The notes below the pieces were generated by a model that saw only the letters and a program-made list of their open reading frames with translations, had not been told where the DNA came from and searched no databases. A DNA stretch of 60,595 bases, counting the filler, from Bipalium vagum (lineage: Eukaryota): NCBI GenBank assembly GCA_037834085.1. It is 3 parts of 3 records of this genome, joined end to end, with 100 filler letters (N's around TTAATTAATTAA, not from the genome) between each part and the next. Parts side by side here need not be neighbours in the genome. Positions count along the whole stretch, not along the records: positions 1 to 17,628 come from JBBMKC010058115.1; 2 more parts are not named here. The stretch is one strand, 5' to 3'. Numbering within the stretch: position 1 is the stretch's first letter; each line of letters starts with the position of its first letter. A program made the position numbers and the translations under genes. Below are positions 1 through 58,112 of the stretch, piece by piece.

Positions 1-45
1 AAAGGTGAACAAATAAATATTTAGTCTTCATTTGTTTTTTGTAAA

Positions 46-233
46 GGGGGTGCCAAAAATTATGCACTTCTGAAAAATAAAATTTTCCAAAAAATAAAAA
101 ATGCACAAATATTAAAATGGATACCATTTAATAATCACTTTCAAAGAAATTTAATTAAATATTTTAAAAAAAAATTTTCAATTTTTATTAAGAATTACAT
201 TTTAAGGGGTGCCAAAACTTTTGCTCACTAGTA
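46..233. mobile_element. Terminal inverted repeat end of a Tc1-like transposon with an inner direct repeat (IR/DR type)
   Basis: GGGGTGCCAAAACTTTTGCTCACTAG|TA at 206-233 is the reverse complement of a Tc1-type terminus followed by TA. The same core GGGGTGCCAAAA recurs at 47-58. Confidence 0.6.
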
Positions 234-689
234 TATTAATAAATAGGATTTTTTTGTTAAAACAGCCAGATACCAATTTAGGAAAGTTCATGCAAAATAA
301 ATGAATGTGATTATATTTGAAAAACAGTTTCACAAGGAGTCGAATAGATGTACAGCATAACAATTAGTATAGTTGATTCCCACAACAACCTTGTACCGTT
401 TAGATCCATAGGAGAAAGGTTTAATGTCACTTATATTGTGAGGATAAAAAATTGAAAATGTATCAAAAGTGCACAAATTATTTTATGGATGAGCTTGATT
501 TGGAATCGGCAAGTAAATTTATTTTGTTCTCAAGAGTAACAATAATTATAATTTATAAAGGAAAAATAGTACAGAAATAATATTTTGAGAAATTATCTCT
601 GACAAACCAATTTTTTTACATAAATAGAAGTGGTTCTAAATGTAAAGGAGCGATGATGCATTGACATCATGTAAAGTATATTCCATGAA

Positions 690-3600
690 CTAACAGAATG
701 GACACTGTTTGAAATGTTGATTGCAAAGCAAACAGATTTTGTGACCACATTCGAAAGCAGAATCCATTGGTCTGATGATACAGATATCGCAAATCTAAAT
801 TTCAATAAGCTTCCATATAACAATATTCATTAAATACTTTTTCTTCAACGACTGCGTTTGGTTCTACGCCTTGTGCGTTGAAAATTCTTTTCGATTCATT
901 TTCAATAATTCGGTCTCTTTTAATGATCATCATTTTTTGCTTGTTGCTGAATATTCTTTCAATTTCTTTTCTGGTTTCTGATTGAGAACAGTGCTCAATG
1001 GCCGTATCTCCTTTTGAAGTCTTAAAATATATATTGCCGCCTTCAGAGATTATTGCTTTAATGGCATTTAGAAATCCCAAATATCGGTTTTCCTTAGTAA
1101 ATTTTAAAAAAATGATTATAAACTGCTTACATAACATATACATCATTATTGTTGGACATTTTCTTAAACAACTGCATCAAAGCGGTACGACCTTCACTAT
1201 CTTCATTATCTACATTATCAGTTTCGAAAATCAGATTTTGCACCAAATCCATCGACTCAGCCTCAATAGCAACTTGCAAAGGTGTTTGAAATTTCTTATT
1301 TTTCACATTAATATATTTTTCTGCCTTTGTCTTAAAAAGAATGATTTTTTGACAAAAATTAAATTTCTTTTCTTTGAACAGTCTAGTTAAAAGAGTTTCA
1401 CCATTGTCGAAATAAAGTGAACTTTTAATTTCTATCTTCAGTAAACATTCGAAAGAATCTTCGTCACCCAGCTTAGCTAATTGATACAGTACGAGATCAA
1501 CTACCGACTTTTTAATGTCGATATCAGCACGAATGACCAACAATTTCAATAAATATGATATTTTTTCATTCATATTTTTGTCATTCTAGGAAAACTTAAT
1601 GAAAACAATAATATATTCATATGTATTACATCATGTAAAGGTTGATCTAAGTTTGATATGAGTTCCAATAAAGCTGTATTTCCTTCGTTATTGACGGAAT
1701 CAACTTTTGCACCAGCTTGAATCAGAAGTTCACAAAGGTCGATGTTTAAAAATTTAACTGATAAATGAAGCAAAGAATTTCCTTCTTCATCACAACTGTT
1801 TGCTTTATCTTCATCTAATGCTTCAATGAAACACGGATAAATTTTATTATTCATTTTGATACACAAGGTCAAAGAGTTTTCCCTTTTAGATATTGGAAAA
1901 GAATCTGTAAAGATTTGATTACCTATAGATTTATATTTAATGAGATATAAATATATTTTAAGGAGCATTAAAAATACAACTTAACATTTTATAAAATTTT
2001 TAATAAAATGTATGAAATTATTAGGTTGTCGAATTAGAAATGTCGTTTATATAAATTGTAAATTGTTTTGTTAAAATAATTTGTTTAACTATTAATTGCG
2101 TGGGTTGCTAAGTGTTGGCCGGCAAATATTGAGAGACTGAAGAAAAATTCGGAGATGCAGTGGGCGATGATTCCAAATTAAAAATCTTTATGAAAGCATA
2201 CCAAGAAGATTTCAAAAGGTTATTAAAAATAAAGGTACTAATTTTGAGTATCTTAATTATTCATGTGAGGTTCACTGCTTATTAAAATTTGTTTGATCAT
2301 TTAAAATGTAAGTAAAAGATGCTTCACTGATATTTCAATTGACCTTTCAACATTTACAAAAATTTTGATCTGGAAATATTTGATTGGAGACACGAACTTC
2401 AACATATTCTCTGATATAGTTAAATAAAGATTGAATCAAAATATTTATAGTTATATATGTCAATCATTTAATGGAAATGATATGGGTGGCTCAAAACACG
2501 TGGACGGAATAGTATTAAGTTAAAACGAATTAGAAGCAATACGAGATCTCCTGAACAAAATTTAGTCTTAAATGTATTATTTTTTTATTAAATATTTTTT
2601 AAATATTTAGATGAACCTTCGTTCGAAAAAAATGACAAAGGCAAGTATCATCTAAAAACCTTTTCAAAAAGAAAATATATTATTTCGACTTTCTAATACC
2701 GAAAATGATATTAGAAATTGTAATTTAAAAACCTCAAATACATCAGAGTCATTGAATGTTTTATTTAATAAATTATTTTTAATATCTGTACCATTTTTTT
2801 AAATACATAATCCTAATTGAACTTGTAATAGAAATACTATTTTTGTTAAATTTTTATAATTTTATACAGGTGTTCCGCACAGTTTTTGATTATCGAAGTG
2901 TTCCGTGGCGCAAACAGCTTAGGAACCACTGCTATATAGTATATAGGTTAATTTTTTTTAATAACGACTCAATCTTTAAATGAATAAGAAATATATTTAT
3001 TATTTTTAGTATCTTATTTAAAACTACAATATTGTTCTTAATTCTGAGATAAATTATTTTGTTTAAATTGAAATACAAAAAAGTAGGAAACGTGTTTTAT
3101 AAGGACATTAAAATATGGTAAAATTTGTTATTTTACTGGCAAAATTCTTAAAACAGACACTAATTTTTTATTTGAGTGTTAAAAAAAACTATTCTTAAAG
3201 TATACGAATTTTAGTAATTAAATTTGATGTAAAATTTTGTCCTACAGTATACACGTATTCATGATTATCATTTTCCAATTCCCAATATGTAACTGTTCCT
3301 TGAAGTTTTTAAGCCAGCTAATAGTGGGATAGATTATGCAGTATCAGTAAATGTGTTTCAAAAATATTTTCATTAATAAAGTAAAAATATTTTCGATAAA
3401 AGTATAAATATCATATTCTTTTAAAATATTTTAAATTAAAATATATAATGAGTAAAATACCTCTTTTCCTTTGAATACTCTCATCATGAAGAAACTGAAA
3501 AATGTAAAACTTTAGATAAAAATAAAAAAACGAACAAAATATTTTAAAAATATAATAACAAAAACCCAGTTTTTTATAGCTTGATTTAAACAAAAATTGG

Positions 3601-5573
3601 CCATAAGGTATAATATCCCTGCACAATTTTATCTAAAAAAATGGTTACAACGCATAAATACAAGACATTTAATCAACAAAAGTTTCGTAACGTCGTTTTT
3701 TTGGATTATTTCCACATAAATTTGCAAATATATTAATAAAGATGACACCATATTGCATTCTATACTTGTCATTTAAATTCTGCAATAAGTTCCAATCTAC
3801 AATAGTCTTTATCAATAGATTTTGAGAGAAGTCTTGCTTGTCAAAATCATTTACCAAAAAATACATCAATTGAATTAGAGTTGAAATAACATTCAATTAT
3901 TTGAAATAATTGCTATCGGAAAATGAACAAAAGACATTTTTGAACTATAATATCCATTATTTTGTTCAGAAGAAATAAGAACCAGATTCAAAAAACAATG
4001 ATATTTAATATCATAAAGGAATATGAATGGTTTTAAATTTAAAGGTAATTTTTAAATAATTTTACCAATTAATAAAAACTTTATGATTAATTAAAAAATA
4101 AAATAAATTATTGTTCGGTCAAAAGTGGTATTTTTAAAACAATGAAAATATTAATTAAATAAAGTTTATCATTTATTTGAACCTCCATATATAGACCACA
4201 GTCTGCTCCATTTTTCATCAACTGATCACAAAGATTTTCGCACTCACGTATCACAGCACAATGGAGAGCAGTTTGTCCCATCTTCAAGAAAATGTTCATG
4301 AGAAGATCGTTACAAAATACTCACAAATCCAGTTTCATTAATGTTTGGTGCATCATCAATCAAATATTGGCAATGGTCAATCATTCCATTTAAAATTGCC
4401 TCATGCAGTGGACTTTGTAAATACTAAACAAAAAAACATTGACAAATTTATTTCAAAAAAATATTTATTGATTAACTTTATTCTTAATGTTACAATTGAC
4501 ATTGAAACTTTTCAAAACTGACATACACTTGTCATGACACAAGATAATGGCCAACGAAAAGGCAGTTCCCAATATCTGAAAACAAAACACCATGAGTTAA
4601 AAATTGAAGAAACTAAAGTTTTTATTCACTTCATGATTGTAATTGGGATCAACAAGACCTTTATTCAAAATATATTCGACCATGTCTGGGTCATTGTCAC
4701 ACACAGCCGTGTGTAATATCGATAGCTTTGCCTTGAATCAAAATGATGATCGAAAATAACAAAGTAAATTAATAGTACTTTTTCTCTGTATTTGAGTAAA
4801 GATTCTCTATTCAATATCAACTTTATTATTTCATGATGACCTTTCTCTAAAGCGATTTTCTTTGCTCTCTCCCACGACTACAGGAAATATTCTTTATTTT
4901 AAAATTTTAATATTCTCTCTAACCTCACTTTCAAATATACTTTTTTTCAATATCTCATGAACAAACACATAACTTCCATATTGTGCTGCTACTTCCAAGA
5001 ATGAGCACGGAATCTACAAAGAAGTCGATTACAAATTTCTTACTTATAAAATTTCACCATTTTTCGTTGACCATTGATAATGTTCGCACAAGAAATCAAT
5101 TGAAATCCTTCTTGATGGTGATCTCTGATAAATTTGTAAAACAGAACCTGAAATTCATTTTACATTTAAATCGATGAGAAAAATATCTCAACCTCCTTGC
5201 ATAATTCAGTGTTTAGTGATTGTGAATTATTATTACTCAAAATATTTTTGATATAAAAAATTTCCTGTAATGAAATCACAATGCGATGGAAAAATTTTGA
5301 GGGACTTACTGAATCGTCGGTTGGCATTTCTGAAATTAATTTTATGATCTTATGCGCTTTATTCTTGAACATTATCTCTAGCCAAGATTGCCTTAACTTA
5401 AGGCTTTAAGTAATTTTCGCATCAACTATTAGAAGAAATTTACATTATTATCCGCAGTGGTCAGAGCTCCACAGACATGAAGTTCAGCAAAACCATTTTC
5501 ATCATCATTGATAATAGAGTCACATATCTTTGATTGCATCTTAATAAACATTTTCAGGCATTTTGGTATTAAA
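690..5573 (-). CDS. Multi-exon ankyrin-repeat protein with C-terminal C3HC4 RING finger (putative E3 ubiquitin ligase; architecture like the C-terminal half of Mind bomb)
   Basis: GT-AG introns 795-837 (43 nt), 1093-1141 (49 nt) and 1586-1629 (44 nt) join the listed ORF fragments in frame. Last exon 690-794 reads ICDICIIRPMDSAFECGHKICLLCNQHFKQCPFC*. Ankyrin motifs: GNSLLHLSV, GNTALL, QTPLQVAI, GRTALM. Upstream ankyrin exons: 4183-4281 (MGQTALHCAV), 4325-4423 (YLQSPLHEAI), 4477-4575, 4630-4731, and further exons to ~5573. The 5' end and the exons in 3250-3920 are unresolved, so this could be two genes. Confidence 0.8.
2120..2513 (+). mobile_element. Tc1 transposon 3' remnant inside an intron
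   Basis: Translates to ..NLYESIPRRFQKVIKNKG.. (Tc1 transposase C-terminus). Terminal GGGTGGCTCAAAACACGTGGACGGAATAGTA at 2484-2513 closely matches the Tc1 end at 17808-17838. Confidence 0.65.
2868..2931. mobile_element. hAT (Charlie-like) element terminus
   Basis: Ends ...CAGCTTAGGAACCACTG; reverse complement CAGTGGTTCCTAAGCTG resembles hAT-Charlie TIRs. Partner end not found. Confidence 0.4.
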
Positions 5574-6246
5574 TCTGTTGCACTTTATTAATAGTTAGGA
5601 TATATTTCTAGATGTTATTATTAAAAAGGAAAAGAGAATAATAAATTAAAGAGTATTATATGCAGAAAAGAGGTGGATACAGGACTATATAGTTCAATCA
5701 ATAGTTTCTGTGAAGAAAAATACATGGCTTAATAAAAGATTAATTCATAGAATAAATTTGTTAGGGACATTAAAAAAACCGCTTGCATAAAATAATTATA
5801 GTGTTTTTTTAGATTAGGTATTTTTTTTAGTGATTCTTCTGCATTTGTTAATTAAACTTATTTTAATAAAATCTAATTTGGTTTTTATTAGACTTTATCT
5901 AATAACTTCGTTCGTATTTTATTATAATTTTTATCATTAATTTTGTTTTGGTTTTTAAATTTATTTAATATTTTTAAAATCAAACGATCAAGATTGTTTG
6001 ACCAACTTTTTTACTGATAAATATTTTCTTAAAGTTATAATTTAATCAAGTGAATATTTAGGTTTATAAATCTGAAAATCTTTTATGTTTAAACAGTTTT
6101 ATACTTCTTCCAATTTTAGTTTTTCTGATCCCTTACCTTATAACATTGATCTAAGATTATTTGTTTATCATTTTTCTTTTTTAATTTTCATTTCATCATC
6201 ATTAATTATAATTTCATGGTAAACTTTATTTATTATCATAATGTTT

Positions 6247-7030
6247 CCATTATTTTAGAAATAAATAATAAATCTATTTTTAAAATAAAAATATAAAGTT
6301 ATGGTATATTTTAATTTCCTAATGGAAACTCAGTATTCTACATCTAAAAATCATAAATATACCTACCAGAATATTAGGATAACACTTCATAAAAATTTTA
6401 ATTTCTTTCAATAAGTTTTTATTTATAAATCTTTTAATTATTATGATTTTTTTTTGTTTTTGTTAAATTGTTCTTATTTAGGTTTAATTTAAAAAATTCT
6501 TATTTTGGTGGATTTTCTTCTTGTATCAAATATTTATTTTGATTTATCATACCTTTCATTTTTGAATTTTTTTCATTTACTTCATTGTTTTCTTTTTTAT
6601 TAATTTCTATATTTTTAATTTTAAGACCTTCACTTGCGAATTTATCGACATGTTTATGAAATGTATCTAAATCTGTATTTAATTCTCTTCCTGCTTTTCA
6701 GGAATTTAATTGATTTATTTCAAATTTAATTTTGTAGCTATTAATTTTTTCAATTTTAAATTCTTTTTTTAATATCATTAGAATTTTTATTTGCGGAGAC
6801 TAAGCCTCCAAGATCATTGATTGCATCCATTATTTTTGAAAAATAAAAATCTATTTTTAAAATAAAAATATAAAGTTATGGTATATTTTAATTTCCTAAT
6901 GGAAACTCAGTATTCTACATCTAAAAATCATAAATATACCTACCAGAATATTAGGATAACACTTCATAAAAATTTTAATTTCTTTCAATAAGTTTTTATT
7001 TATAAATCTTTTAATTATTATGATTTTTTT
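6247..7030. repeat. ~200-bp near-identical direct repeat (6247-6453 and 6828-7030)
   Basis: Both copies contain AAATCTATTTTTAAAATAAAAATATAAAGTTATGGTATATTTTAATTTCCTAATGGAAACTCAG...ATTATTATGATTTTTT. Confidence 0.9.
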
Positions 7031-7925
7031 ATAAAATTTTATTCCCCTTTTTGTATTAAATTTAACATTAAACTATGATTATTATTTTTTCTACATACAA
7101 ATTTATATTTCTTTCCTTTTCGCTCCTTTTTTCATCATTATTATTAACTTAATTCATATTTTCAACACCTCTTGTACTCACAGCTGCTTTTTGAATTTTT
7201 AATTTGATAAATAATTTTCTTTGATAACCATTTCCTTTCTCCATTAAAAATATTTGTTTAGGTTTTCTATTTCAATATATTTATGTAATTTATCCTCGGT
7301 TAATTCTTCAGTTATTTTTTATAAAAAAATTGAGAAAAAAAATATTTTTTAATATTTGATTAATTATACTGGATATGATAAAGGATTTATTTTGGTATAT
7401 AGTTCATGAAAATCGGTTCAGTATACCGAAAGATATTAATATCAAAAGTTTTTATTGATATTATTTTTTAGTTTTTATTATCTTATTCACTATATCCATA
7501 GCGATTCATTTTTTAAAAATGTATCCCAAACAAATTCATTTATTATTTTATTTTTAGATATATTGTGAGCATCGTATTTCAGAGTCATGTCCTGAAAGTA
7601 TGATTTTCCCTACTACTTATTCAAATGAAATTAAAAGATATGAGTAAAAGGGTACTAAAAATACCATTTTCAATAGGTGTAGAACCTTTAAGAAAGTAAT
7701 AGAAAAATCTGTAGAACATGAAGATCTGAAAGTAATTTCAATCCCAATAAAAACGAAGAACTATTTTAAAAATTAAGACACCAACGCCTGCAACATTGCA
7801 AACTAATGTCATGAAAAAATTTTAATGTCATGGGTGCAATAGGTTATAAACGTAGATAGAGGAGACATGTCACACCAAAAAATCTGTGAGTGAGTATTCG
7901 CAATTAAGTGGGACCAGTAGAATGT

Positions 7926-8856
7926 TTAACCATTCAATGAATTATATTGTGCAAAAGTGTAAAGCTAGCGTAGAAATATTCAGAGAAATTCAGTGTTTCG
8001 TGTTGGAATACTGGATGAGTAGTTATATTGTCTACCACGTATGGGAACACGGCTGATTGTCAAAATAAGGAGTACATAGAAATAATGTTCTTCTTACCGA
8101 TCTTTTGTCTGGATTTTTAAACGGTGTTTGCCTTTTTATTTCTTTTTAACAAAAATGGTAATTCAAGTAAGTTGAAGAAAAAAGAATTTCACAGTTGAAA
8201 GGTGAAGGATGGCTTGTGAACATGATTCTCATATTTAAAAGAGAATGATTGTGATGGATTTTCGCCACTTCTGAAACCAGACCTCAAAAAGGAGTTGGGA
8301 ATTTTGGAAAGCATGCTAAGCTATGAGCTGGGTTGGAAATACGAAATAATCGTGAACCAATGCCTTCTGATGTCTGACCTGATTCCAATTCTAGTGGGTC
8401 TTTTAACCACCTGAAAAGATGCCATGTAGCTGAATCTCATCAAGAACAGTGGTTAATAGACAAGTCTGTTGATATCTTCATGTTAGCCTAGATCGCCCGA
8501 AATTTGATCAGGAAATTGGGTTGAATTCCAGTTGAGACTCAGAGTTACTCCTCTGTTGATGAGCCCATGTGGTTGATTTCCACTGGCAGAGTACCTCATT
8601 GTCCTTACTAATAGTATCCTCACGTTAGCTTAATTCTGATAAGTTCGTGAAGAAGGGGTAAAAATCAAAAACACACCCATACAATCAAGGATCTGAAGAT
8701 ATCCGAATTAAATCAAATCGAAGAAGATAAACAATTTTATGTATAATAATCTAGTAGTCTAAATAAAGCGTTTTAAATAATAGTAAAGTGATTAACCATT
8801 CAATGAATTACGTTGTGCAAAAGTGTAAAGCTAGCGTAGAAATATTAAGAGAAATT
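7926..8856 (+). mobile_element. Degenerate LTR-retroelement-like relic bounded by 65-bp direct repeats
   Basis: TTAACCATTCAATGAATTA..GTGCAAAAGTGTAAAGCTAGCGTAGAAATATT.AGAGAAATT at 7926-7990 and 8792-8856. The interior is richer in GC, with weak pol-like fragments. Confidence 0.4.
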
Positions 8857-8907
8857 GTGATCAATTTTGATAATAACAACATTTCCCTGTCAGATTATCA
8901 TTTATTT

Positions 8908-11900
8908 CTATCGGTTATTGTCGGGCTGCAATTTCAGGAATAATGAAGTTTTTAAAAAGACTATATAATTGAATTGCTTGGAAACTAAATGCTTTGATTT
9001 TTATGATGGAATTGTTATTAATGATTGGAAAAGCACTTTTTAATGAAAATGTTTTTGACCAGAACAACTTATTTTTCAAAATTAAAAAATAATATTACTT
9101 CAATGACATTTTTGATTAATTTTACAATTTCTTTATGGTCCATAGATTTTGCTAAGTCCAAAGGAGTTTTTCCGTCCTATAACATAGAAATGAATAACTA
9201 TGTATAAAAATGTAATATAAGAGAAAAAATATATAATAAATTTTGAAAAATGTTATAATTTTAGTTCAACTCCTGATTTTCAAAAATTAATAATATTTCT
9301 TGTAAGAGATTTAAAAAGTTATTTTTAGTGATTATTATATAAAGTAAGTACGGAATGACTGAAAATTCAATAAGTCTTTAACCAAGTCTGATTTCAAGTG
9401 TATAAAATGAAAAATAGTATTCTTTTATATAATATTTATGGGTTGCCTGAAGAGTGCTGAAAAAGTCAACATATACCTGGTTCGATTGTCTTTTTACTTT
9501 TTTAACTTTACAGCATTGGATATTGTGCTATTCAAAAAGTCTATTTCTTTATGGAAGTTGTTTTCTAAGCGAATTTTTGAGTCATTTATATATTTATTCA
9601 ATTTTTGTAGGATGGACAATATAAAATTGATTTAAGTATTTTTTCAAATAAAAATATCATCTCGATAACACAGATTTTGCGAACTGATGGAAATATATTC
9701 AACTATTTTATCATCATTCCTTTCTTCTATATTGCAATTTTTTTTAAAAGTTACTAATTTATCTGTTGTCGTAAAATTTTTAATTTAATTTTTTAATTAT
9801 TATAATTTTTATTATTATTATAATTTTTATTATTATTTTAATTTTTATTATTATTTTAATTTTTTAATTAATTATTATAATCTGTAATTAAATTTTTTTA
9901 ATTAATTAATTTTTTAATTAATTTTTTTTAATCTGTTGCATACCGCTATTCAGACTATGGAGATGCCTAAATATCTCATTTAAGAACCGTACTTTGGACA
10001 TCTTCAACTCATTTTTATGAAATTTACAAAATCTATTTTCACAAAAATAAGATTTTCTCCATGAAGCTCAATTAGGCGAAATAGCAGATTTTCTTTCGAT
10101 AACATCTGTATGTGTGCTGTAGTTATCACCATCATTATTTCTTTTAAAAATGTGTCTAAATTTGAAGGTGAATTATATAAAATTGAAGAAAATAAATCTA
10201 AGAGAATTTTTATAATATTTATCCAACTAACTTTGATTTCACCTGTTAATTTATATATTGAATTTTCTTGAATATTAAAAAAAAATTTACTAATATCTGT
10301 TTGAAGCACTCCAGCAATCATTCCATGACACAGTGGTTGGGAACCGGTGGATTGGAGGAATCATTTAAACATATTTATTAATACAATTTGATTTTAAGAA
10401 AATATTTTTATTCCACTATTTTTAAAATTAAAAAATAATACATTTTGATAATTAAATAAAACTTCATAAGTTAATTAAATTGAAAATTTCAAACAAGCAG
10501 ACCATTACGGTATTCAGAAATAGATAGAAATTTTGTTGATCGTTATCGATCCACAAAGATTCTATCATAAAATCTTCAAGACTCTGTGCTTTGCATCCGT
10601 GAATATTTTTCAAACGTTACAATTTGTTTAGATATTACAATCGATTACTTAAATCCAGAAAATAAAATTTTGATAAAAATGTATTTCACTTACTTGACAT
10701 TTTACATTGATTTCACATTTTTCCTGTATCAATATTTTTACCACTTCAATGTGACCTCTTAGGCATGCAAAATGTATTGGTCTCGATTCCTAAAAGAATT
10801 AAAATGGTTGCTTTTTTCTAATTTAAAAAAAAAATTACAGTTTCAGTTTCAATATTAATTTTGCAATTTTGCTGGATCAAATATTTTACTATATCAATGT
10901 TACCATTGCGACTTGCCAAATGAATTGGTCTTTCCTTCTAATATAAAAAAATTTATCTAAATTATAATCAACAATAAATACATGGTTGTCTTCACTTTCT
11001 ATATCACAGTTTTCATGGATCAATAATTTCACAATTTCAAAGTATCCTTTCTCACATGCATAATGGATGGGCCGCATTTTCTATGCAAATAGAAAACGTA
11101 TCATTTTTCAAATCATTAATAATTTATTACTAAAATGTTTTCACTTTCAATATTGCATTCTTGCTGGATCAATATTTTGGTTATTTCAAAGTGACCTTTC
11201 TCACATGCATAATGAAGAGGCTTTTCTTTCTAATTAAATAAAAATTGATTAGTTTTTTATCCAGAAAAATAATTAATTACATCTTCTGTTTCACACTCAA
11301 TATTGCATTTCTGATGGATCAGTAATTTCACAATGTCAACATAGCCTTTCTCACATGCATAATGAATTGGTCTCCGTTTCTGAACAATTTAAACGTGTTT
11401 ACTTTTAAAAGTTTTTAAAAATTTTTTACACTTTCATCTTCACTTTCAATATTACATTTTTTTTGGATCAATAACTTCACAATGTCAGCATGACCTTTTT
11501 CACAGGCATAATGAATTGGTTTCTTTTTCTAAAAAATAAAATAGTTTAGTTTTTGTAATCATCGATAATTAACTACTAAAATGCTTTCACTCTTAATATT
11601 GCATTTTTTCTTGTTCAATAACTAAACCATTTCAATATAACCTTTCTCACATGAATAATGAATCGGTTTCTCTTTCTCATAAATTAGTTTTTATGAAACA
11701 AAAATATTTGAATTACATTTTCAGTTTCACACTCAATATCGCATTTGTGGTGTATTAATAACTTCACTATTTCAATTTGGTCATTTGAACAAGCATAATG
11801 AATTGGTCTCCATTTCTAAATAAATCAAACTAATCTTTAAAATAGTCAATAATAAATCACTCGTTTGCTTTCACTTTCTATATTACACTTTTGCTGAATT

Positions 11901-12961
11901 AGCAATTTCAAGATTTCAAAATGTCCTTTTTCACATGCATAATGAATGGGTTTCTTTTTCTAAGCAAATCAAAATCGTTCACATTTTATTGAATCATCAA
12001 TAATTATTTACCGAAATATTTTCGCTTTCAATATTGCACTTTTGTTGGATCAATAGTTGAACTATTTCAAGATGACCTTTCTCACATGCATAATGAACAG
12101 GTTTTTCTTTCTAATCAAATAAAAAAAGGCATAGTTCTTTTAATCAGAAAAATAATTAAAAACATTTTCAGTTTCACACTCAATATTGCAATTTTGCTGG
12201 ACCAGTAATCTTACAATATCAACATGGCCTTTCTCGCATGCATAATGAATGGGTCTCCATTTCTATATAAATAAAAGGTTATTTTTTATATTATTAATAA
12301 TAATCAGTTACTAAAATGTTTTCACTTTCAATATTGCAGTTTAGCTGGATCAATAATTTCACTATTTCAAAGTGACCCTTTTCACATGCGTAATGAATTG
12401 GTTTCTCTTTCTAAATGAAAAGCAATTACCCTCCCAAATTAATGAAAATATCGTACTAAAATATCTTCACTTTCAATATTACATTTTTTCTGAATCAATA
12501 ATTTAACAATTTCAAATTGACCATAAGAAAATGCAAAATAAATAGGTCTCTTTTTCTGAAAATAATAAACTTTATATTTTTCCAAGTATCAATAACTACT
12601 TACATAGTTTGCTTCAGTTTCAATATTGAATTTTTGATCAATAAAAAATTTCACAATTTCAATGTAACCATAAGAACATGCGAAATGAAATGCTTTCTTT
12701 TTCTAAATGAATGGGAAAAACAAAAAGTCGTATCAAAATTATTAAAATCATATTTTACTTATCTTAACTTAGCTTATTAAACTAACATAAAAATCATTTT
12801 GGTTGATGATTTCATCAAGAAACACTTTTTCAAAATTGTTTCTGACTCCGTCCAAATCTCCTTTTACCAAAAACTTTTTAAAATTTTCATATTTCCTTTA
12901 AAAGGTTTATATTTATAATATCAACCTCAAAATAAAAAAAATAAAATTACATTTTCGCCAT
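8908..12961 (-). CDS. Ankyrin-repeat-only protein, one repeat per exon (14 repeat exons plus capping exons)
   Basis: Candidate ATG at 12961 (MAKM|KYENFKK..IINQNDFY). Phase-0 repeat exons: 12604-12702, 12457-12555, 12312-12410, 12164-12262, 12012-12110, 11861-11959, 11717-11815, 11577-11675 (contains TAG), 11430-11528, 11281-11379, 11131-11229, 10982-11080, 10839-10937 (all 99 nt) and 10694-10789 (96 nt). Consensus KxxPIHYACEKGHxEIVKLLIQxxCNIExExxx. Then exon 9099-9176 (DGKTPLDLAKSMDHKEIVKLIKNVIE) and a probable last exon 8908-8925 (PDNNR*) followed by AATAAA. Confidence 0.88.
9780..9930. repeat. A/T-only low-complexity tandem repeat in an intron
   Basis: Iterated units such as TTTTTATTATTATTATAA. 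Confidence 0.7.
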
Positions 12962-15900
12962 CGATAAAAATTGATTATCAATATTCCAACGTTTACCTAA
13001 ATTAATATATAATTATCATCAACCATTAAAAAGAAAAATATTTTTAATAATACGTGAATATATAAATGGAAAATCTACAAGCTAACTTAAATTTTCTAAA
13101 ATTCAATTTATTTTTGAAATTTAAAATAACAAACTTACAAAGTTTTCCGCATTAACTGTTTAAAACAAAATTTTGTTATATTTTTTTAAACAACTATATT
13201 TTTAATTTATTTTATATATATGAGAAACTTAGGATATTCTTAGTTTCTTTTAAAAAAATCAACAGAAAAATAAATGATTAAATTAGAAGAAATTTAATAA
13301 GTAAACAAAAAAAGACTTATTTTAAAACAAATTTCCAGGGTTAGACAAAAATTAAAGTGTAATTTAGACCTTCCCAACAGCCAATTGACTACATGTTGAT
13401 TGATAAGGTGATGTTGCATCTTAATAATTTTGGAATAAATATGTTCAGGGTTTGAATTTCAATCCACGTCAACCTAATTTAAAATGTGAGTAGAATATTA
13501 GACAAATAAATAATATTCTCTATCTAAAGAAATTTTTAGAGGGATAGGCTTTAAATTCAATTCAATTCTATATTAAAAGAAACTAAAATATTTTCGCTCA
13601 AAAAAGACTTGCAAATCGAGTACATTTTGTGTATGTGTATAATTTTAAAAAAGAAACCCATTAAAAATATAGAAATAACATTTCATTCTTTCATAAAAAT
13701 AAATATTTATAAAAATATCAAAGCTAAAAAATTCAATTTTTATTTTATAAAACCCAAAGACAAATAAATATCCTCAGATGAAAATTGTACATATAATCAA
13801 AATTACCATTTTCAATAAAATGTGGTATTAATTTTGAATAAAATTGAGATTTATTAATAAATTAAAATTAAAGTTATTTCTTATACTTCTTAAAGGTAAA
13901 TTAAAAAATTGAGATAAATATATACTACATTTATTATGTCTTCCTCTTTTAAAATATATTTTTTAATCGTTTAATTTTCTCAATTTATTTAATTTATAAC
14001 CTTCTCCTTTTGATATTTTTTAAAATCATTTCTTTTAGTTAAAAAATGATTGACATATTTAATTTTTTAAATAATTAGATTTTTGCATTAAATAAAAATA
14101 TTTTTTCATTTAATTTAAACTGTATTTTATTTCCCATTTTAAATATTCGCATAATTTTTCTTTAAAGGAGGGATTAAAATCTGTTGAGATTTTTAATGCT
14201 TGTCTCATATCTATTGTTTTGTTAATAATTATTTTATCACATCTCTTAATTAAATATCATTTTTTATTTATTGTTAAATGATCTTTATTAATTATAATAT
14301 AAATAGTTTTTCGAAGCTCATTAATAATCTGAAAATAGTTTTATAAGTTAAAGTATATTTTGGTGGTTTTTCAATTCAGATTTTTCCTCAAATATATCCC
14401 ATATATTCATTTTCTATTTTAATTTTTTCTTATTTTAGTTTATAATTTTTTGGATGCTATGTAAAATAAACGTGCTAGAATCGAAGACTCGTTTCTAAGA
14501 ATGTTTCTTACCTTTTTAAACTTTTTATTTTTAATATTTCTAATTAATGAGTAATGGGTTTATAAATATCTGTTAATATTCCAAAAAATATTAACCAATT
14601 TTCCTGATTTAAAATTACAAAATAATGAATCGTTCGAATAAACAATATCGTAATAGAAATCAATTTATTCAAAAGAAAAATCACTAAACAATAATATTCC
14701 TCAATTCAATTCTTCTTTTGTCTTTTCTTTTCGTCGTAACCGTTTCTCTGTCGTTTTGTTTCTCCTCTTTTATTTTTTATCCACTTTGATTCTGGTTCCC
14801 TGTTTTGTTCTCGCTGTGGAGAATCTGGTAGTTGCTTTATACTCTTCAGTTTTCCCTCATTGGCCAATCTTAATCACAACTGGGATATCTTCCCTCTTCT
14901 TGCTTTGCTACTGAGAAACCTGCAGCCTTCAATTATCCAGTTCAACCCGGCCTTAGCTAAATAATTGACTCTGCGGTGTCCCTCTCTATCTCTGCGTGGC
15001 CATCCGATCCCTTTTCCATTAGAATAATAACAATATGGGAGCTTTAATTATTCAGCTCAGCCCAATCAGACACAAAAACACACAAACAGACACAGACACA
15101 TTCTTTCTATTTCAATAAACATTCAATAACATTATGCATTTTCTAATTACACGACACACAAAACTGACAATAACCAACGCCAGACACACTCCTTGACACT
15201 CTCCCAGTTTTTACTTTTTTAAAAACATAAATTTTACAATTCTTTTAGAAAATTAATATTATTGAACTCTGAAAGTTCTCAAAAATTTCGTCCCGCGCGC
15301 AAGTAGTGCATAATGCTTGAATTTACTTCAAATTCTTCAGAAATGGCTGGTTAATTTTGAAATTATGTATGAAAAATGAAATTTAAATGATCCGGATTTA
15401 TGATTATTTAAACAATATGCATTTATATATGAATTTTAACTAAAAACATGTAATATATTAAAGTTCAAAATTCTTGCCAATTTATCGCACGTTCCCTTTA
15501 TATCCGAAGCCGAGTTCAGATCAGGACAACCTGGGTCTATTAAAGTACCCAAAAATCATCTAATTTGATTAATTTTCCAGAACTATCCTGGAAGTACACT
15601 GACATAATTTACTCTAAAACTTTTTCGACAATTTTACTTTTAAATATTAAAGCGATTTTTATTTCTCAATTCTGATCTGTATTTATGACTTACTTTTCAA
15701 TCATGTCAAAAGTTTTCAGAGTTGAGGGTTTCCTTAGCGACAAAACGGCATAGAATCGAAATTATTTTCTTTTATTCCTATCATGGTAAAAGAACGAAAA
15801 TAATTACTTTCACCATCAGAACCAAATTAATTTTCATTTGTCTTAATCGTGACATTTATTAATCAATTTTCAATCTGTCGCAAAACTAGATAACTATAGG

Positions 15901-16451
15901 CAGAAAATTGTCATTTAAAATTTTTTCTTATGATCATAAATATTTATACTATTCTTACTGACTACTAAATTTCGGAATCGCAACAATACCTAATTGCGTT
16001 GGTCTATTTCTAATTTCCACAGTATTGGGAATTAACCTTTTGTTTCTTTTGGATATTTAAACGATAAATCCGGTGACAAATAATTTTTTGAAAAACTAAT
16101 CCTAGATCATAAATGATCAATATAAAAAGCAGTCTCTGTGACAACAAAAATTTATTATTATTTTAATTAATAATTCAATAAATTAACAAGTTTGTTTTTA
16201 TCAAAGATAAAAAAGGAAGAAATAAAAATGTGAAATAAATAAAACCAATATTGGTTGAGAGTTACGTATATTTACAAATTTATCGAATTATTATTATTGT
16301 TATTATTATTATTATCGTAATACTACTGTATAAAAATGAAATGATATATCGATTATTGACTTGTGCACTTTCAATGAAACAAACACACTCACATACAACA
16401 CACTCAGACACTTCCTGATTAAATTCAATCTAATTTTTAACGAAGGAAAAA

Positions 16452-16907
16452 TCAGGACCTCTTGTGCCTTTTGGCAGCCAAAATGTCATCAATATCGTCG
16501 CAACAATCCAGAGACGAAGAAGTAGAACACGTTTCGTTTTGACTATTGGCCAGAAACAGCTGTTTGTCGTTCCTGTTATTTTCATCGATCTTGAACTGGG
16601 TCGTGCCAACATTGTCCTTATCGATGTTTTCAAATTTGCTTTGCTGACTATCGACGGACGAACTGTTTCCATTAGTTCCACTGTTCGGATTAGTTCCGGT
16701 GCTCGTTGAAGAAATCACTGATCGCGATGTGGATGCATTGGGAGTTGAGTTTGTACTGCCAGATAGATCATTAGAATCTTCATCGATTAAACGAAGTGAT
16801 GATGATCGAGACAGATTGGATTGATAACTCTGGTAACTGCTGTTTGCATAACCATTGCATCTTGACTGGCGCATTAAAATTTGCACTTGATTCTGAATAT
16901 CACGGCA
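16452..16907 (-). CDS. Terminal exon of an unidentified gene; Ser/Thr/Asn-rich, ending in basic KRHKRS
   Basis: Acceptor ttttttag at 16908 opens a 151-codon frame (CRDIQNQVQILMRQ...AAKRHKRS*) with coding-like GC content. A possible upstream exon at ~17547-17628 (LRLITVGRSCALLLKDIGGSCRSHHKF|gtaatt) runs into the gap. Confidence 0.6.
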   Translation of the reverse strand, partial: CRDIQNQVQILMRQSRCNGYANSSYQSYQSNLSRSSSLRLIDEDSNDLSGSTNSTPNASTSRSVISSTSTGTNPNSGTNGNSSSVDSQQSKFENIDKDNVGTTQFKIDENNRNDKQLFLANSQNETCSTSSSLDCCDDIDDILAAKRHKRS

Positions 16908-17628
16908 CTAAAAAATCCCAATTAATTCAGAATTAATTGTTCATGATAATAGGTAATAATTTTAAGATTACTTAAAATCCTATAACAGTTTCTCAAATAA
17001 AAGTCGTTACTCGCGCAGATAATTCATGTTTAAGAATTCGATTTGAAAACCCAATTTAAATAAATTAAAAACGAACGATAAAAAAAAGAACTATTCAAAT
17101 TTTTGGCATTTTTTCTCATTTTCAAAAAATTTTAATCGGAACAAAAATAGTATTCATTAAGAGAATAATTATTAATATGTTGAATTAAAATGATCCATGG
17201 GTCGTATTTCATTATTGACATGTTGAAACTTTTATTTTAATTAAGTTTCTGTAATTGTCATTTTAGGAAATTAATAAAAATTGATTATTTACTTCTAAAT
17301 TATTATTTAATTGATAAATTGTCATTAGAAAGTTAAATACCATTAATCGTTACCATCACTTCAAACAAATGAATTCAAAGATTGTATCGGAAATCTTTTA
17401 TCTAAAATTTTATCTTATATTACACTTTAATTAATTAAATTTATATTAATAAATATTTATCAGTGGAAAAAAATAATTTCGATGTATTGTCTATTGATTT
17501 GTTTGTTTTAAATCTATTTATCAGATCATACACAGCAAATAATTACAAACTTATGATGGGATCTGCAGGATCCACCAATATCTTTAAGCAACAGAGCACA
17601 GGATCTACCAACAGTGATCAACCTCAGC

Positions 17629-21419: not shown

Positions 21420-22200
21420 TGAGGAACTTGTTCTTTCCGTAATAAGTTGCATTTTTCTGGATTCACTCAATTTTGCATGTTGGATACTGTCTCAAACTCA
21501 ATGTTAATTTAGGGTTTCTGAAAACCCCAATGAAACATTGTTCTTTCTAGATCATCTAATACTTTTGTCAGTTCTTGTAAAACAATGCTGCCCAGCTTTA
21601 GTGGAAGAAGCTGTCTTTTCCTGTGACTCTTTCTAATAGAAATTGGTAATATGTGTGATGTCCCACTGAAATATTTTGCCCCATGAAGTTTATCTAACAT
21701 TTTCACGTTTGACATCTGAAATGCTTGCCTTTTGTAATTGTGTTTAGTTTCCTGAAATCTAAGAAAATTCTAACATCCTTTCTCTCATTATGCCATTCAC
21801 ATATCCACGGTGTATTCCAAAGAAAATTGTATTTTCTGACAATGCCATTATTTGTTAAATTTTTGATAGTTGTGTCAATCTCTTCCTGATTTATGGGTTG
21901 TCTCCGTGGCTTTTTTTCTATGACATTCCCACTATCTGATATAAATACTCCTGGATATTTTCGAATAACTTTTTCAGACTTATCGTTTTGCTTGTTCATT
22001 AAAATTTCTAAATCATTAATTTTCAGACCAAACTTTACGTCTATGATGGAGACTCTCCAGTTCTTCACTTCTACTTTATTTTCCTCTAATCGATAACCAA
22101 ACTTTCGTTGCATATCTATTCTTTCAACAAGATCAGAAGTCATGTCTTCTACTATTGTTAATTGTACTAATTTCCTAAGCTTTTAGATTTATACATCTGC
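21420..22200 (-). mobile_element. Ty3/gypsy reverse transcriptase remnant (frameshifted)
   Basis: GIVRKYNFLWNTP...VRIFLDFRKLNTIT, then MLDKLHGAKYFS in another frame. Confidence 0.85.
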
Positions 22201-26706: not shown

Positions 26707-27983
26707 ATGACTGCACATGCCTCGAATGAATCCGGTAGAGGAAAAGTTGAATTGTGTAAGTTTTTATGGATTGAATTTTTCGGATATTTTTATATCCAAA
26801 CTGGAATTTGTTTTGTTGGATTTTGTTTAAACCTTCTCTGTCTTTTTGTATTCCACAAAAGACATTTTCACAGAGTGGTTCACTATTTTATGGCAGCTCT
26901 GGCATTTTTTGATATGCTAACCCTTCTGATAATAATGCCTCAAGGGTTGTTGAGGTTAGAATGAATTTATTCCATGATTAAATATAACGATATTTTGTTC
27001 ACAGATGTTCAGATGCCACCAACCATTACTTTATCTATTGTCAAAACGAAGGATTTAAGAATTTTCGCTTAGTACTTTACATGTATACGATTTATTTCGC
27101 ATTTCCCTTCAGCAACATCACCGAGTGTATGTCAACCTTTATCATTTTGATGTTGACATGGGAACGATATCAAGTCATGAAAGGTCTTTATCATTACAAC
27201 TTTAAATCGACCTCTTATGTTTATTCAATTATCTCAACTTTGATTATAATTTCTATCGTCTTAAACTTTCCTTTCTTTTTCGTACAAGAAAATGTGAAAA
27301 TCAAACATAGTCTTATGGTTACATCGAAAACGTCGAATGTTTCCTATCTCCGTAATCTGACGACCATTAAGACGATATTTACCGAATTTGGCAAAAGTCA
27401 ATTTTACTGGTATTACCTCTGGATGAGAATGGTTATCATTCCGATTTTCGTACTACTTGTCGTCACAATCTTATCCATTCTCTTAATAAAGGTTACACAT
27501 CGTTCATTTAAAAACTATTCTTTACTTTTGAACCGGAAGTCGGATCCGGAATTCAACAGTCGTCAAATAAACTCCATTTTTACCCGTCGTATCGAAATCG
27601 AACTTCAGCTGACTTCTCTGTTGATTCTTTTGATTTTGTTGTTCATTTTTGGTCAATTTCCTCAAGCTTTTTCCTTTATCCAACTGTACGAGAAAATAAC
27701 GAGAAATTATTTCCCACCAGGACCAGGACCAGTAGAATGTAGATATGATTATAAAATATACCGAATGATTTCATATTTCCTCTCACTGTGTACGTACGGG
27801 TTTCCTTTCTTTTTATATGTCGTGTTTGATGGGGCCTTTCGGAAGGCTTTACTGAGAGCGCTATTGTGCAGAAAGAGTCGTGGTGACGAGGATATTGATT
27901 TCATGGACAGTCAAGAAACATTCAATTTAAGCACGGTAAACCCCGTAACATTCTTGTCCCAAAATGCAACGATACATCAATAG
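26707..27983 (+). CDS. Rhodopsin-family peptide-type GPCR (FMRFamide-receptor-like group), two coding exons
   Basis: Exon 26707-26954, phase-2 intron 26955-27004 (50 nt, GT-AG), exon 27005-27983, in frame. Seven hydrophobic segments; TM1 GFCLN, TM2 ALAFFD, TM3 LTWERY, TM4 LNFPFF, TM6 GQFPQA, TM7 FPFFLY..FR. An acceptor at 26690-26691 suggests an upstream exon. Confidence 0.9.
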
Positions 27984-41324: not shown

Positions 41325-41458
41325 TCATTGTCAAATGATATTAATACAAATACTCTCTCACATCTTTCATTGTCCAAGACAGAATAGAAATTTCTGCTAA
41401 CCAATCATCGTCGAGATTGACTCCTTTTATACAATCGATATTTCCTCTGACCATTATT
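41325..41458 (+). promoter_or_regulatory. Conserved upstream block of the 7TM paralogues (E-box CAAATG, CCAATCATCGTCGAG)
   Basis: Alignable copies precede five paralogues. CCAAT starts at 41401, 47247, 50875, 54412 and 58051. Regulatory function is inferred. Confidence 0.55.
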
Positions 41459-42421
41459 ATGACAGGGTACAGGTTTCAAGAAGATATCTTAACTTGGTAT
41501 TCTTTGAGTCTTTTGATCTCCTTTGTCGGAGTTTTTGGAAATTTGTGGTGTGGTTCAGTAATAGTGCTGTCTAAATCCTTATGGAAATCTCCGTTTTACA
41601 GAATAATTCTTGCCATAATCATTCTCGATATCACAACTAATGCAATTTGCATCCCATTCGAAGGAACTCAGACCTATTTTAAAATCTATAGGAATGAGAC
41701 GTTGGGAAACGAATTGGGTTGCATTGTTGAAGGGATAATTTTTAATGTTGTTGCATCCATGTCGAATATGAACAAGATGATCGCAGCTGGATATCGGGTC
41801 TGGGCAGTTGTGTTTCCCTCAAAATATTACTTAATTTCCAATATGAAAATAGTTACAATACTCATCTTAAGCATATCTTTAGCTCCGGGTTTTCTATTTT
41901 TTGTTTGTGGTATTAACACTTTTGTCTGGTACATCATACATCCAATTTTTGGGGACTGCAGCGAAAAATATCTAAATTATGTGGTAAATTTAATACAAAG
42001 TTCGGTTCTCTACCTTTTCCCAGTAATCATAAGCTTTTTATTCTATATGTCCATCATAGTTAGACTTGTGATGATAAGATCAAAGTTAAATAAAAGAAAC
42101 AACGCACTAAAGAACACAAAGGTTTGTTTGGGTTTTGGGTTAATTATGCTTTTATATTGTATCTGTGTCATTATATTTTGGACGGAGTATAGACAGAGAT
42201 TGCGGGTGAACATGTGGCTAAGGTTTGCCATCAGAGCATCCTATGGCATATCACCGGTAAGCAAGCTTAGTATAAAACGTATTTATATATATAATTATAC
42301 TTTTCAGATGTTGTACATTATCCTCGACCATAACATTATAAAGAAATCCAAGGATGTTATCAAAACCGCATGGAAACGTTTTAATAACAAGGTCTTGGAA
42401 AATCCGATCTCTTCAAAGTGA
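41459..42421 (+). CDS. Orphan rhodopsin-like 7TM receptor paralogue 2 (intact, ~303 aa)
   Basis: ATG at 41459; exon to 42256; intron 42257-42307 (51 nt, same position as in paralogues); exon 42308-42421. TM1 GN, TM2 D, Cys at top of TM3, ECL2 GDC, AGYRVWAVVFP in place of DRY, SPMLY in place of NPxxY. Confidence 0.9.
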   Translation: MTGYRFQEDILTWYSLSLLISFVGVFGNLWCGSVIVLSKSLWKSPFYRIILAIIILDITTNAICIPFEGTQTYFKIYRNETLGNELGCIVEGIIFNVVASMSNMNKMIAAGYRVWAVVFPSKYYLISNMKIVTILILSISLAPGFLFFVCGINTFVWYIIHPIFGDCSEKYLNYVVNLIQSSVLYLFPVIISFLFYMSIIVRLVMIRSKLNKRNNALKNTKVCLGFGLIMLLYCICVIIFWTEYRQRLRVNMWLRFAIRASYGISPVSKLSIKRIYIYNYTFQMLYIILDHNIIKKSKDVIKTAWKRFNNKVLENPISSK

Positions 42422-50932: not shown

Positions 50933-51907
50933 ATGTTACAGAACAAGTCTTTAGAAGATATCTTAACTTGGTATATTCTCAGCATTTTATTGTGCTGTCT
51001 TGGATTCTTTGGGAATCTGTGGTGTGGTTCAATAATTGTTCGGTCGAAATCGTTATGAAAATCTCCCTTCTACAGAATAATCCTTGCAATCATCATTCCC
51101 GATTTTATAATCAACTCGATTTGCATTCCTTTCGAGTTAACGGAAACCTACTTGAAAACCCAGTGGAATCAGAGGATGGAAAACGATGTTGGTTGCATAG
51201 TTGAAGGGGCGATTTTTGCTTTCTCTGCATGCATGTCAAATATGAATAAGATGATCGCGGCTGGATATCAGGTATGGGCCGTTGTGTTCCCATCAAAATA
51301 TCACCTAATTTCCAACATGAGAGTAGTTTCAATCTTGATCTTAACCATATCCTTCGCTCCAGCGCTCTTTGTTTTTATTTGTGGTACTAAGACCATTTTC
51401 TGGTACATCGTAAATCCACTTTTAAGAGACTGTTCTCCGACATCAAAAAGCTTTATGATCCTTCTAGTTCTCAGTGTGCTTCTCTTGATTATCCCCATAA
51501 TCATCAGTTTTATATTCTATATATCCATTATAGTTAAATTTGTGATGATAAGATCCGATTTGAATATGAGAATCAATACTCTGCGGAGAGTCAAGGGTAG
51601 CTTGGGTTTGGGGCTTACGATGTTGCTCTACAGTGTTTGTTTAATTGTGTACTGGATCAATAATAACTCTGAGTATAATGAAACGAATTTTAGGAAGATT
51701 ATATGGATAAAGTTTGTCTACAGAGCAGCTTATTGTATAGCACCGGTGAGTGAATTTATTATATAATGTGTTGGAATTTAACTTTGCTTTCAGTTATTCT
51801 ACGTAACCCTCGACTCAAATATTATACAAAATTCCAAGGAATTTATCAAAAATTATAAGAATTTTTTGAACAAAAGAGTTCGTCAAAATCCGGTCACTTC
51901 ACACTGA
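50933..51907 (+). pseudogene. Orphan 7TM paralogue 4; full length with a single premature TGA
   Basis: ATG at 50933, in frame throughout. TGA at 51056-51058 (codon 42; TGG or AGG in paralogues). Intron 51746-51793; exon 51794-51907. The TM3 Arg is replaced by Gln (AGYQV). Confidence 0.88.
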
Positions 51908-57250: not shown

Positions 57251-58112
57251 TATTCTTTTATTTTTTTAGTTGGCAGGTTACTTATTATTTGATATTGGTC
57301 ATTGAGAGATAAAAGTAAGGTTGTGGAATATGATCCTGGAAATAATGTAATATTATTATGGAAACAGTAAGTTGAGTGTGTTTGGAATATATTCGTGGGG
57401 ACATTGTGATATCTCGTGGTCAGCAGTTGTGAAGTGCATCAGGCGTATATAAAGACATTGTTATTCTGATTTGTTCGAGGAAGAAAAACGTTATTTTAGC
57501 AAAATTTTAATAATGAAATTAATTTTTTTAATTAAAAACTTTCATTAGGATTTTCCGTTAAACGTTAAATATTTTATTTCATTTTTTTAAAATGTCAAAG
57601 TTTACTATTGATTATTTGGTTGAAATTCGGTTTGTTCTCGTTTGAAGGTCATTTTAGATATTATTCTAAAATATTGAAAATTTCAGATTTTCGATAAAAG
57701 GTGTCCAAAAGGGAGTAAACAAAATTTACTCTGATTATTACATTAATTTTTTAATTTTAAATTTAGTTTTAATAATATAACATAATAATATAATATAATA
57801 ATAATAACAAAAAAATTATTAAAAATGTAACTGTCCCTATATAAGCACATAGGATAAAATCAAAGTTTTTGGTAAAAAACTAAAAAAGGTTTCCAAAATT
57901 TAAGTATAACATGAAATAAATTTATTATAGGTACCATTATAGGTACCTTACGCTACACTTTGGACTGACATAGGACAACTACCAATTGAAATGAATACAA
58001 GTACTCTCTGGCATCTTTTATTGACTAAGAGGAACAAGAATCGCTGCCGACCAATCATCATCGAAATTATTTAATATATATTCTAAAACCTAAGCTTCCT
58101 CGGATAATAATT

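Follow-up and report, generated by a model that had tools for sequence, protein, structure and literature searches.

An in-frame TAG codon within a damaged ankyrin repeat exon of Bipalium vagum may well serve as the replacement for the lost 3' splice site of this exon, with a chance somewhat short of even as judged from the sequence. A remnant of 15 residues would then stand in place of repeat 8 of the encoded array, and the reading frame would be kept. The window, i.e. the whole stretch of DNA analyzed (60,595 nt including filler), consists of three contigs. Repeat exon 8 is located in the first one (1-17628), a contig included in its full length. In the preliminary description, the exon had been regarded as dead and released from selection by skipping, or alternatively as a poison exon.

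Gene model

The host is an animal with an AT-rich genome, in which introns are short and GPCR genes numerous. Alignment with paralogs resulted in a gene model of 32 exons on the minus strand, reaching from 12961 to 690 and comprising 3,633 nt or 1,210 codons. All 31 introns are of the GT-AG type, and the single internal stop lies in exon 8; the other 31 exons are open. The encoded order is an N-cap, an array of 14 repeats, more ankyrin-like exons and a C3HC4 RING (Table 1). The array exons are in phase 0 (13 of 99 nt, the last of 96 nt), and all ten that were scanned matched the Pfam ankyrin models. By sequence, exons 4-6, 7-9 and 10-12 with their introns look like a triplet duplication. For the first of the middle exons an alternative in-frame start at 5539 is possible.

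Table 1 Features of the ankyrin-array/RING gene and of the exon 8 region
Feature	Position	Strand	Remark
Start exon and N-cap exon	12787..12961	-	start exon 12951-12961 (ATG), N-cap exon 12787-12895
Array of 14 ankyrin exons	10694..12702	-	one repeat per exon
Old intron 7	11676..11716	-	41 nt, polypyrimidine tract deleted, GAG at end
Predicted extended intron	11622..11716	-	95 nt, made up of old intron 7 and the 54 nt at the 5' end of exon 8; inferred
Damaged ankyrin repeat exon 8	11577..11675	-	ancestral 99-nt exon, phase 0
TAG, codon 18 of exon 8	11622..11624	-	also last three bases of the candidate in-frame 3' splice site ATGGTTTAG
Predicted remnant exon	11577..11621	-	45 nt, LLNKKKCNIKSESIL; use inferred
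Intron 8	11529..11576	-	48 nt, intact (GTAGTT...TTTTAG)
Capping ankyrin exon	9099..9176	-	3' of the array
Ten conserved middle exons	4183..5527	-	72-102 nt, several ankyrin-like
Linker exon	3461..3494	-	34 nt, phase 0 to 1
Three C-terminal ankyrin-region exons	838..1922	-	1630-1922, 1142-1585, 838-1092
Last exon	690..794	-	C3HC4 RING, eight of eight zinc ligands, TAG directly after

Some further features of the gene were noted. Exon 7 (11717-11815), the neighbor of exon 8, has the lowest identity of the intact inner repeats and carries Asp at position 12, where Gly is usual (2 of 255 paralog exons). In the exon at 1142-1585 (minus), the window copy and the copies C199721 and C8800 are without an intron and about 100 codons that are present in four other aligned paralogs; thus, the family has two structural subtypes. 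Within the 3.6-kb intron a stretch of about 250 nt is present twice by eye, about 600 nt apart (6258-7040). The stretches 7970-7890 and 8877-8782 are similar to each other and to a stretch of C144814.

Lesions of repeat exon 8

The in-frame TAG described previously was found again as codon 18, so that exon 8 (11675-11577, minus strand) is translated as KEKPIHYSCEKGYIEMV, the stop and LLNKKKCNIKSESIL. The remaining 13 repeat exons of the array are open, including the last one with 96 nt, and have TAG or CAG acceptors; the GAG in front of exon 8 is the exception it had been taken for. For the 355 scored repeat exons of the family, TAG was counted 248 times, CAG 81 times, AAG 16 times and non-AG nine times; GAG was detected once, in exon 8 alone. 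Among the AG acceptors of the conserved middle exons of paralogs (n = 267) it is missing as well. The upstream intron is indeed the shortest of the array (41 nt vs. 44-84 nt), but this length by itself is not abnormal, with 41 nt in six introns and 40 nt in one across the arrays of the family. The relevant abnormality is the loss of the polypyrimidine tract, of which 11-13 nt are missing compared to the homologous introns 4 and 10. Furthermore, the reported framework substitutions A8S, I16M, I21N and E28K could be confirmed. The same residues occur in 11, 4, 1 and 4 of 255 intact paralog exons, respectively.

The TAG is also confirmed by the sequence data of a DNA run. An 835-nt Logan contig with a depth of 24.5 covers 11128-11962 without any difference; its run, the sole DNA run with this stretch, is probably the source sample of the assembly itself, and Logan contigs drop rare variants. 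This read-level check covered 10300-13200, and the remainder of the gene is taken from the assembly alone. Among the 11,072 array codons five are TAG, compared to 219 AAG and 80 CAG. Three of the four TAG codons outside the window gene belong to decayed copies and one is located at a shifted acceptor. A ciliate-type reassignment of TAG was rejected, since no intact repeat exon contains this codon in frame. The exon 8 lesion is confirmed as real.

The TAG as candidate 3' splice site

Acceptors were scored with a matrix built from 314 paralog acceptors. The old GAG site reached -4.1, which is lower than all of these 314. A score of 7.4 was obtained for the TAG site ATGGTTTAG, which is in frame and 54 nt inside the exon. 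From the old acceptor through exon 8 there are ten AGs, and the TAG alone scores like a real site (33rd, 39th or 47th percentile of real acceptors with three matrix widths); every other AG inside the exon has 0.3 or less. Of 261 intact paralog exons, no more than 4-5 contain an internal AG of this strength. Among the 209 single-base nonsense changes that are possible in 11 other repeat exons of the window, 1 would lead to a TAG with a score of at least 7.4, and 16 would reach 3.5 (5th percentile). With A replacing T, the predicted score of the site is 3.6. The substitutions I21N and Q22K abolish the CAG at +66, the best internal site in six sibling exons. The donor of intron 7 belongs to the 84th percentile, the donor and acceptor of intron 8 to the 11th and 58th percentile.

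A splicing pathway can be proposed on this basis. Intron 8 would be removed on its own, as expected of short introns. The donor of intron 7, a strong one, would pair with the first good downstream AG, the TAG at 11622, resulting in an intron of 95 nt. As splice sites of such short introns are expected to be paired across the intron (PMC6142364), it is likely that intron 8 leaves alone and that the donor of intron 7 takes an AG within exon 8. The remnant LLNKKKCNIKSESIL would be placed in the loop that connects repeats 7 and 9. Transcripts spliced via GAG or the AAG at +4, or retaining intron 7, would meet stops and be cleared by NMD. The shift of the acceptor by 54 nt, a multiple of three, would remove the stop in frame. 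Since the TAG forms a good candidate acceptor in frame and the donor of exon 8 and the 48-nt intron 8 are intact, use of the TAG fits better than the direct join of 11717 to 11528 proposed earlier.

Tolerance of such changes within the family is suggested by the acceptor shift by 6 nt in C112845 and the open degenerate 90-nt unit of C246215. Several observations argue against the TAG acceptor. The test was made post hoc, and a matrix score is not equivalent to splicing. The intact exons 2 and 3 contain internal CAG sites with scores of 6.0-6.5, presumably not used in splicing. Outside the array, real acceptors of the gene reach down to scores of -0.3. An intron of 95 nt is outside the mode of 40-62 nt, although the gene has one of 84 nt. 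Exon 8 shows 6 private changes in the 45 nt of its 3' half and 7 in the 54 nt of its 5' half. With these small numbers, greater constraint on the retained than on the intronized part was not seen; hence the remnant is without sign of selection.

A more detailed history is offered tentatively and is rather unlikely to be right in full. In this history, a nonsense-looking change of A to T, converting a lysine codon into a 3' splice site, would have been fixed as a splicing repair after deletion of the acceptor. This would make exon 8 a clear example from nature of intronization with a stop codon as the acceptor. The gene would belong to an undescribed animal family of at least 60 ankyrin-array RING ligases, with variable repeat cassettes possibly acting as rapidly evolving sensors of substrates or pathogens.

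Selection on exon 8 and on the whole gene

In comparison with the majority of three siblings, 10 nonsynonymous and 6 synonymous changes were counted for exon 8. The same comparison gave 2/7, 4/10 and 5/5 for exons 3, 5 and 11 (total 11/22; Fisher p = 0.052). Relative-rate comparisons, which are not independent of each other, pointed in the same direction in 15 of 15 cases, two of them with p < 0.05. All changes were polarised against sibling exons only. About 6 changes in excess, on about 83 sites, suggest that exon 8 has been neglected for roughly 0.03-0.08 substitutions per site. If the whole gene had been dead for this span, 7.5-25 nonsense or GT/AG lesions would be expected elsewhere. None was observed, or one if the stop at the RING tail is counted; the Poisson chance of at most one lesion with 7.5 expected is about 0.005. 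With 0.01 substitutions per site the expectation falls to 2.5-3.2 lesions, and the time since the damage of exon 8 could be short, since the excess is borderline (p = 0.052).

The middle exons evolve at the normal rate of the family (mean identity ranking 11th from the bottom among 25 copies; pN 0.184 vs. 0.192). The signature of a whole-gene pseudogene, i.e. spread lesions and relaxed evolution throughout, was not found in the window gene. As the 31 other exons are open, whole-gene decay is unlikely. It had been claimed that exon 8 alone was released from selection because it is skipped. The first part of this claim is supported by the damage, which is confined to exon 8, and by the excess of amino-acid changes given above; skipping is a less likely reason than use of the TAG.

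Alternative explanations

Skipping of the whole exon would turn exon 8 into a pseudo-exon within one intron of 188 nt and yield a protein of 1,177 residues with 13 array repeats. We consider this unlikely, though worth weighing. The frame is kept, and a clean stack of 13 repeats would be the structurally simplest product. Decay has reached the two halves of the exon to a similar degree and includes I21N, a core change that occurs in 1 of 255 paralog exons. The donor of exon 8 is weak (11th percentile). Array introns of 182-374 nt in C20123, C235044 and C147662 make a skip of 188 nt feasible. In contrast, the spliceosome must bypass an acceptor of the 33rd-47th percentile 93 nt earlier, the donor GT and 48-nt intron 8 are intact, and the acceptor quality of the stop would have arisen by chance, with a probability of about 0.5-8%. 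The flanking introns have only 41 and 48 nt. According to excerpts of a eukaryote-wide account, long flanking introns are typical of skipped exons and skipping is less usual with short introns (PMC6142364). The array had also been thought to tolerate exon skipping in general. A diversity system based on skipping gains no support from one dead exon in at least 62 arrays.

The gene could also be a null allele, or close to one: with splicing mostly failing at exon 8, it would be a young pseudogene of a family that evolves by birth and death. This, too, appears improbable on balance, but several observations are consistent with it. Retention of intron 7 and use of the AAG at +4 each lead to an early stop, and AAG acceptors are common in the conserved middle exons of paralogs (58/267). 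A null allele is possible because the RING tail is lost as well, in a RING that has diverged; a young one is possible because only about 3 lesions are expected at 0.01 substitutions per site. Decayed copies are frequent, with a flagged exon in 15 of 62 scored arrays and C196598 wholly decayed. However, the tract deletion, the change of the acceptor from TAG to GAG and the stop are all located within one of 32 exon units, and no lesion is present in 60 other GT/AG sites and 3,531 coding bases. The loss of the tail looks old, as judged from an 8-nt gap, and the RING ligands have outlasted it.

A regulated poison exon or a deliberate short isoform of 288 residues under NMD control, the second proposal of the preliminary description, is very unlikely because the acceptor of exon 8 itself is the destroyed element, scoring below all 314 paralog sites. 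The AG and GT dinucleotides are formally present and inclusion would lead to a stop 22 exons ahead of the last one, but exon 8 is less conserved than its siblings and the lesion occurs in no paralog among at least 62 arrays. The probability of a sequencing error or a reassigned TAG codon is negligible: although only one DNA run, probably the assembly's own source, is available, its contig shows no difference at a depth of 24.5, several separate lesions lie within the exon 8 unit, and the intact repeat exons are without TAG.

The RING domain and its missing tail

The window RING belongs to the C3HC4 type with eight zinc ligands and was matched by PF00097 with E 0.008, below the curated cut-off. 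It ends with CPFC, and the TAG (690-692, minus) follows right after the last cysteine. A tail of 13-20 residues, mostly with a RIFFN-like end, is present in 14 of 14 paralogs. The C-terminal tail with an aromatic residue, a feature of dimeric RINGs, is absent in the window copy. In addition, the RING sequence of this copy has diverged further (15.6 of 33 residues identical vs. 19.7-22.9 in paralogs). The DNA past the stop aligns with paralog tails only if a gap of 8 nt is allowed, which suggests an old loss of the tail that was outlasted by the eight ligands. In many dimeric RINGs C-terminal tails are essential, according to the text passages at hand (PMC5702613); thus, the tail loss in the window copy counts against full function.

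Among solved structures, a paralog RING is closest to MIB1 RING3 (E 1.2e-7) and to the RINGs of BIRC7/cIAP/XIAP. The gene product would be a RING E3 ligase of the MIB/IAP type whose binding array is variable. MIB1/IAP-type E3s and the window gene have in common that ankyrin repeats precede a C-terminal RING. MIB/HERC2 and ZZ domains are part of MIB proteins; the window gene model contains neither of these nor a BIR domain. It further differs from the MIB/IAP-type E3s by its single RING, the long variable N-terminal array and the missing post-RING tail.

The ankyrin-array/RING family

In the genome at least 355 repeat exons in at least 62 arrays of 1-27 units each were detected on 73 contigs. 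These totals are lower bounds, with the best 40 candidates scored per genome search. Both include two capping exons mis-called as repeats (no. 8 of C225465 and no. 4 of C235044) as well as the minus-strand array of C8800, which belongs to another ankyrin gene. Arrays of 27 and 17 repeats are present in C69863 and C104243, respectively. The array of C69863 lies next to a high-copy element with a length of about 1 kb (within 4800-6640); 3,510 candidates were found for it, with 81-90% identity among the best 40.

No exon was flagged in 47 of the 62 scored arrays, and 15 contained a flagged one. For 27 arrays (one contig counted twice) at least six middle exons were present on the same contig, and 18 of these are clean throughout. 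One flagged repeat exon together with clean middle exons was observed in three of the 27, namely the window gene, C112845 and C146020. For C112845 the acceptor of the first repeat exon is located 6 nt further into the exon, in frame, and no lesion was found in its middle exons. In C246215 (3475-3656, plus) the array has a gap of 182 nt with an open degenerate repeat-like exon of 90 nt and intact AG/GT; its middle exons showed no lesion. Hence, as this copy suggests, the array seems to be able to hold non-repeat spacers. C236440 has an internal donor changed from GT to TT, with a contig too short to judge. The remaining damaged arrays have lesions elsewhere as well or no middle exons on the contig. 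C196598 is decayed throughout, and some other flagged arrays carry many lesions. An internal dead repeat in an otherwise open gene is rare but real.

Further copies were noted aside from these counts. The first repeat exon of C266960 has its acceptor 3 nt inside the exon, in frame, and its first codon TAG is the likely acceptor. The first repeat unit of C146020 (about 960-1060, plus) is heavily decayed and followed by three open repeats of 96 nt; the middle exons are open and 5' exons were not found on this contig. C24097 and C168233 are decayed copies with arrays similar to the intact C2259 and C88650. DNA identity of C168233 and C88650 is 82%, and the likeness of C24097 and C2259 was noted by eye.

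The family looks like an ordinary birth-and-death expansion through unequal crossing over. The public relatives found are three unnamed metagenome fragments with about 40% identity, and up to 42-51% over the best-matching stretch. In a metagenome scan 3 of 165 candidates were weak ankyrin matches and were left out of consideration, and Atlas assigned generic ankyrin clusters to the family query. With the exon 1585-1142 as query for longer proteins no homolog was found, which is weak evidence. A narrow search of partial literature records gave no description of such an ankyrin-array/RING family. With at least 62 arrays and a conserved ankyrin-RING body, the family may merit more attention than exon 8.

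Comparison with known systems

Genes with one repeat per exon are known from Ectocarpus, where some repeat exons carry a stop or have lost a splice site, as far as described in excerpts of the 2012 study (PMC3341825). On this basis, phase-0 repeat exons, variable repeat numbers and many pseudogenes are common to both families, and stop-bearing or splice-dead repeat exons inside working genes to Ectocarpus and the window gene. In contrast, the window family is found in an animal and combines ankyrin with RING, whereas LRR or TPR are combined with GTPase or NB-ARC in Ectocarpus. The introns of the window family have 40-60 nt and dead units are rare. A hallmark of Ectocarpus is repeat exons, intact or dead, that lie on the opposite strand or are dispersed within introns. 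None of this kind were detected by a nucleotide profile search of the 73 contigs; just a few degenerate same-strand exons were found beyond the arrays.

The removal of stop-bearing exon parts via latent splice sites has been proposed as intronization driven by premature stops (Catania and Lynch 2008, PMC2586383), and a one-sided shift of a 3' splice site is mentioned for Drosophila (Lehmann et al. 2010, PMC2891723). In the portions of these papers considered here, conversion of a stop-bearing exon stretch of 3n nt into intron with the frame kept, use of a latent site and clearance of failures by NMD are shared with the pathway proposed for exon 8. The difference is that the stop itself would supply the AG and that an existing intron would be lengthened, a case not found in these portions. 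For small exons, loss of the whole exon is expected by these authors in the same portions. No stop codon acting as rescuing acceptor was found in the titles and beginnings of abstracts of a narrow literature search. The Tetrahymena LRR genes with exons of 90 bp (Xiong et al. 2019, PMC6564038), according to extracts of that paper, share with the window family a fixed exon length per repeat, expansion and unequal crossing over. They differ by phase-2 introns, LRR and thousands of genes, compared to phase 0, ankyrin and tens of genes. In general, the exon 8 case is a variant of known processes.

If the TAG is a working acceptor, the locus would provide a dated single-locus test of stop retirement by intronization, as outlined in the sections used of PMC2586383. 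Plain skipping of exon 8, or a null allele, would make the case ordinary repeat turnover. For annotation, a broken acceptor beside an in-frame TAG need not mean a pseudogene.

Other features of the window

At 21703-22182 (minus) a fragment resembling a retroelement polymerase was noted by eye; it had no Pfam match. Long ORFs of divergent seven-transmembrane receptors are located on the plus strand at 26988-27983, 41345-42421, 51059-51766 and 58029-58973. A homolog search with a window GPCR as query gave no match, which again is weak evidence, and the three receptor ORFs that were scanned had no relevant Pfam match. Atlas gave generic animal GPCR clusters and placed one of the receptors among the rhodopsin-family GPCRs.
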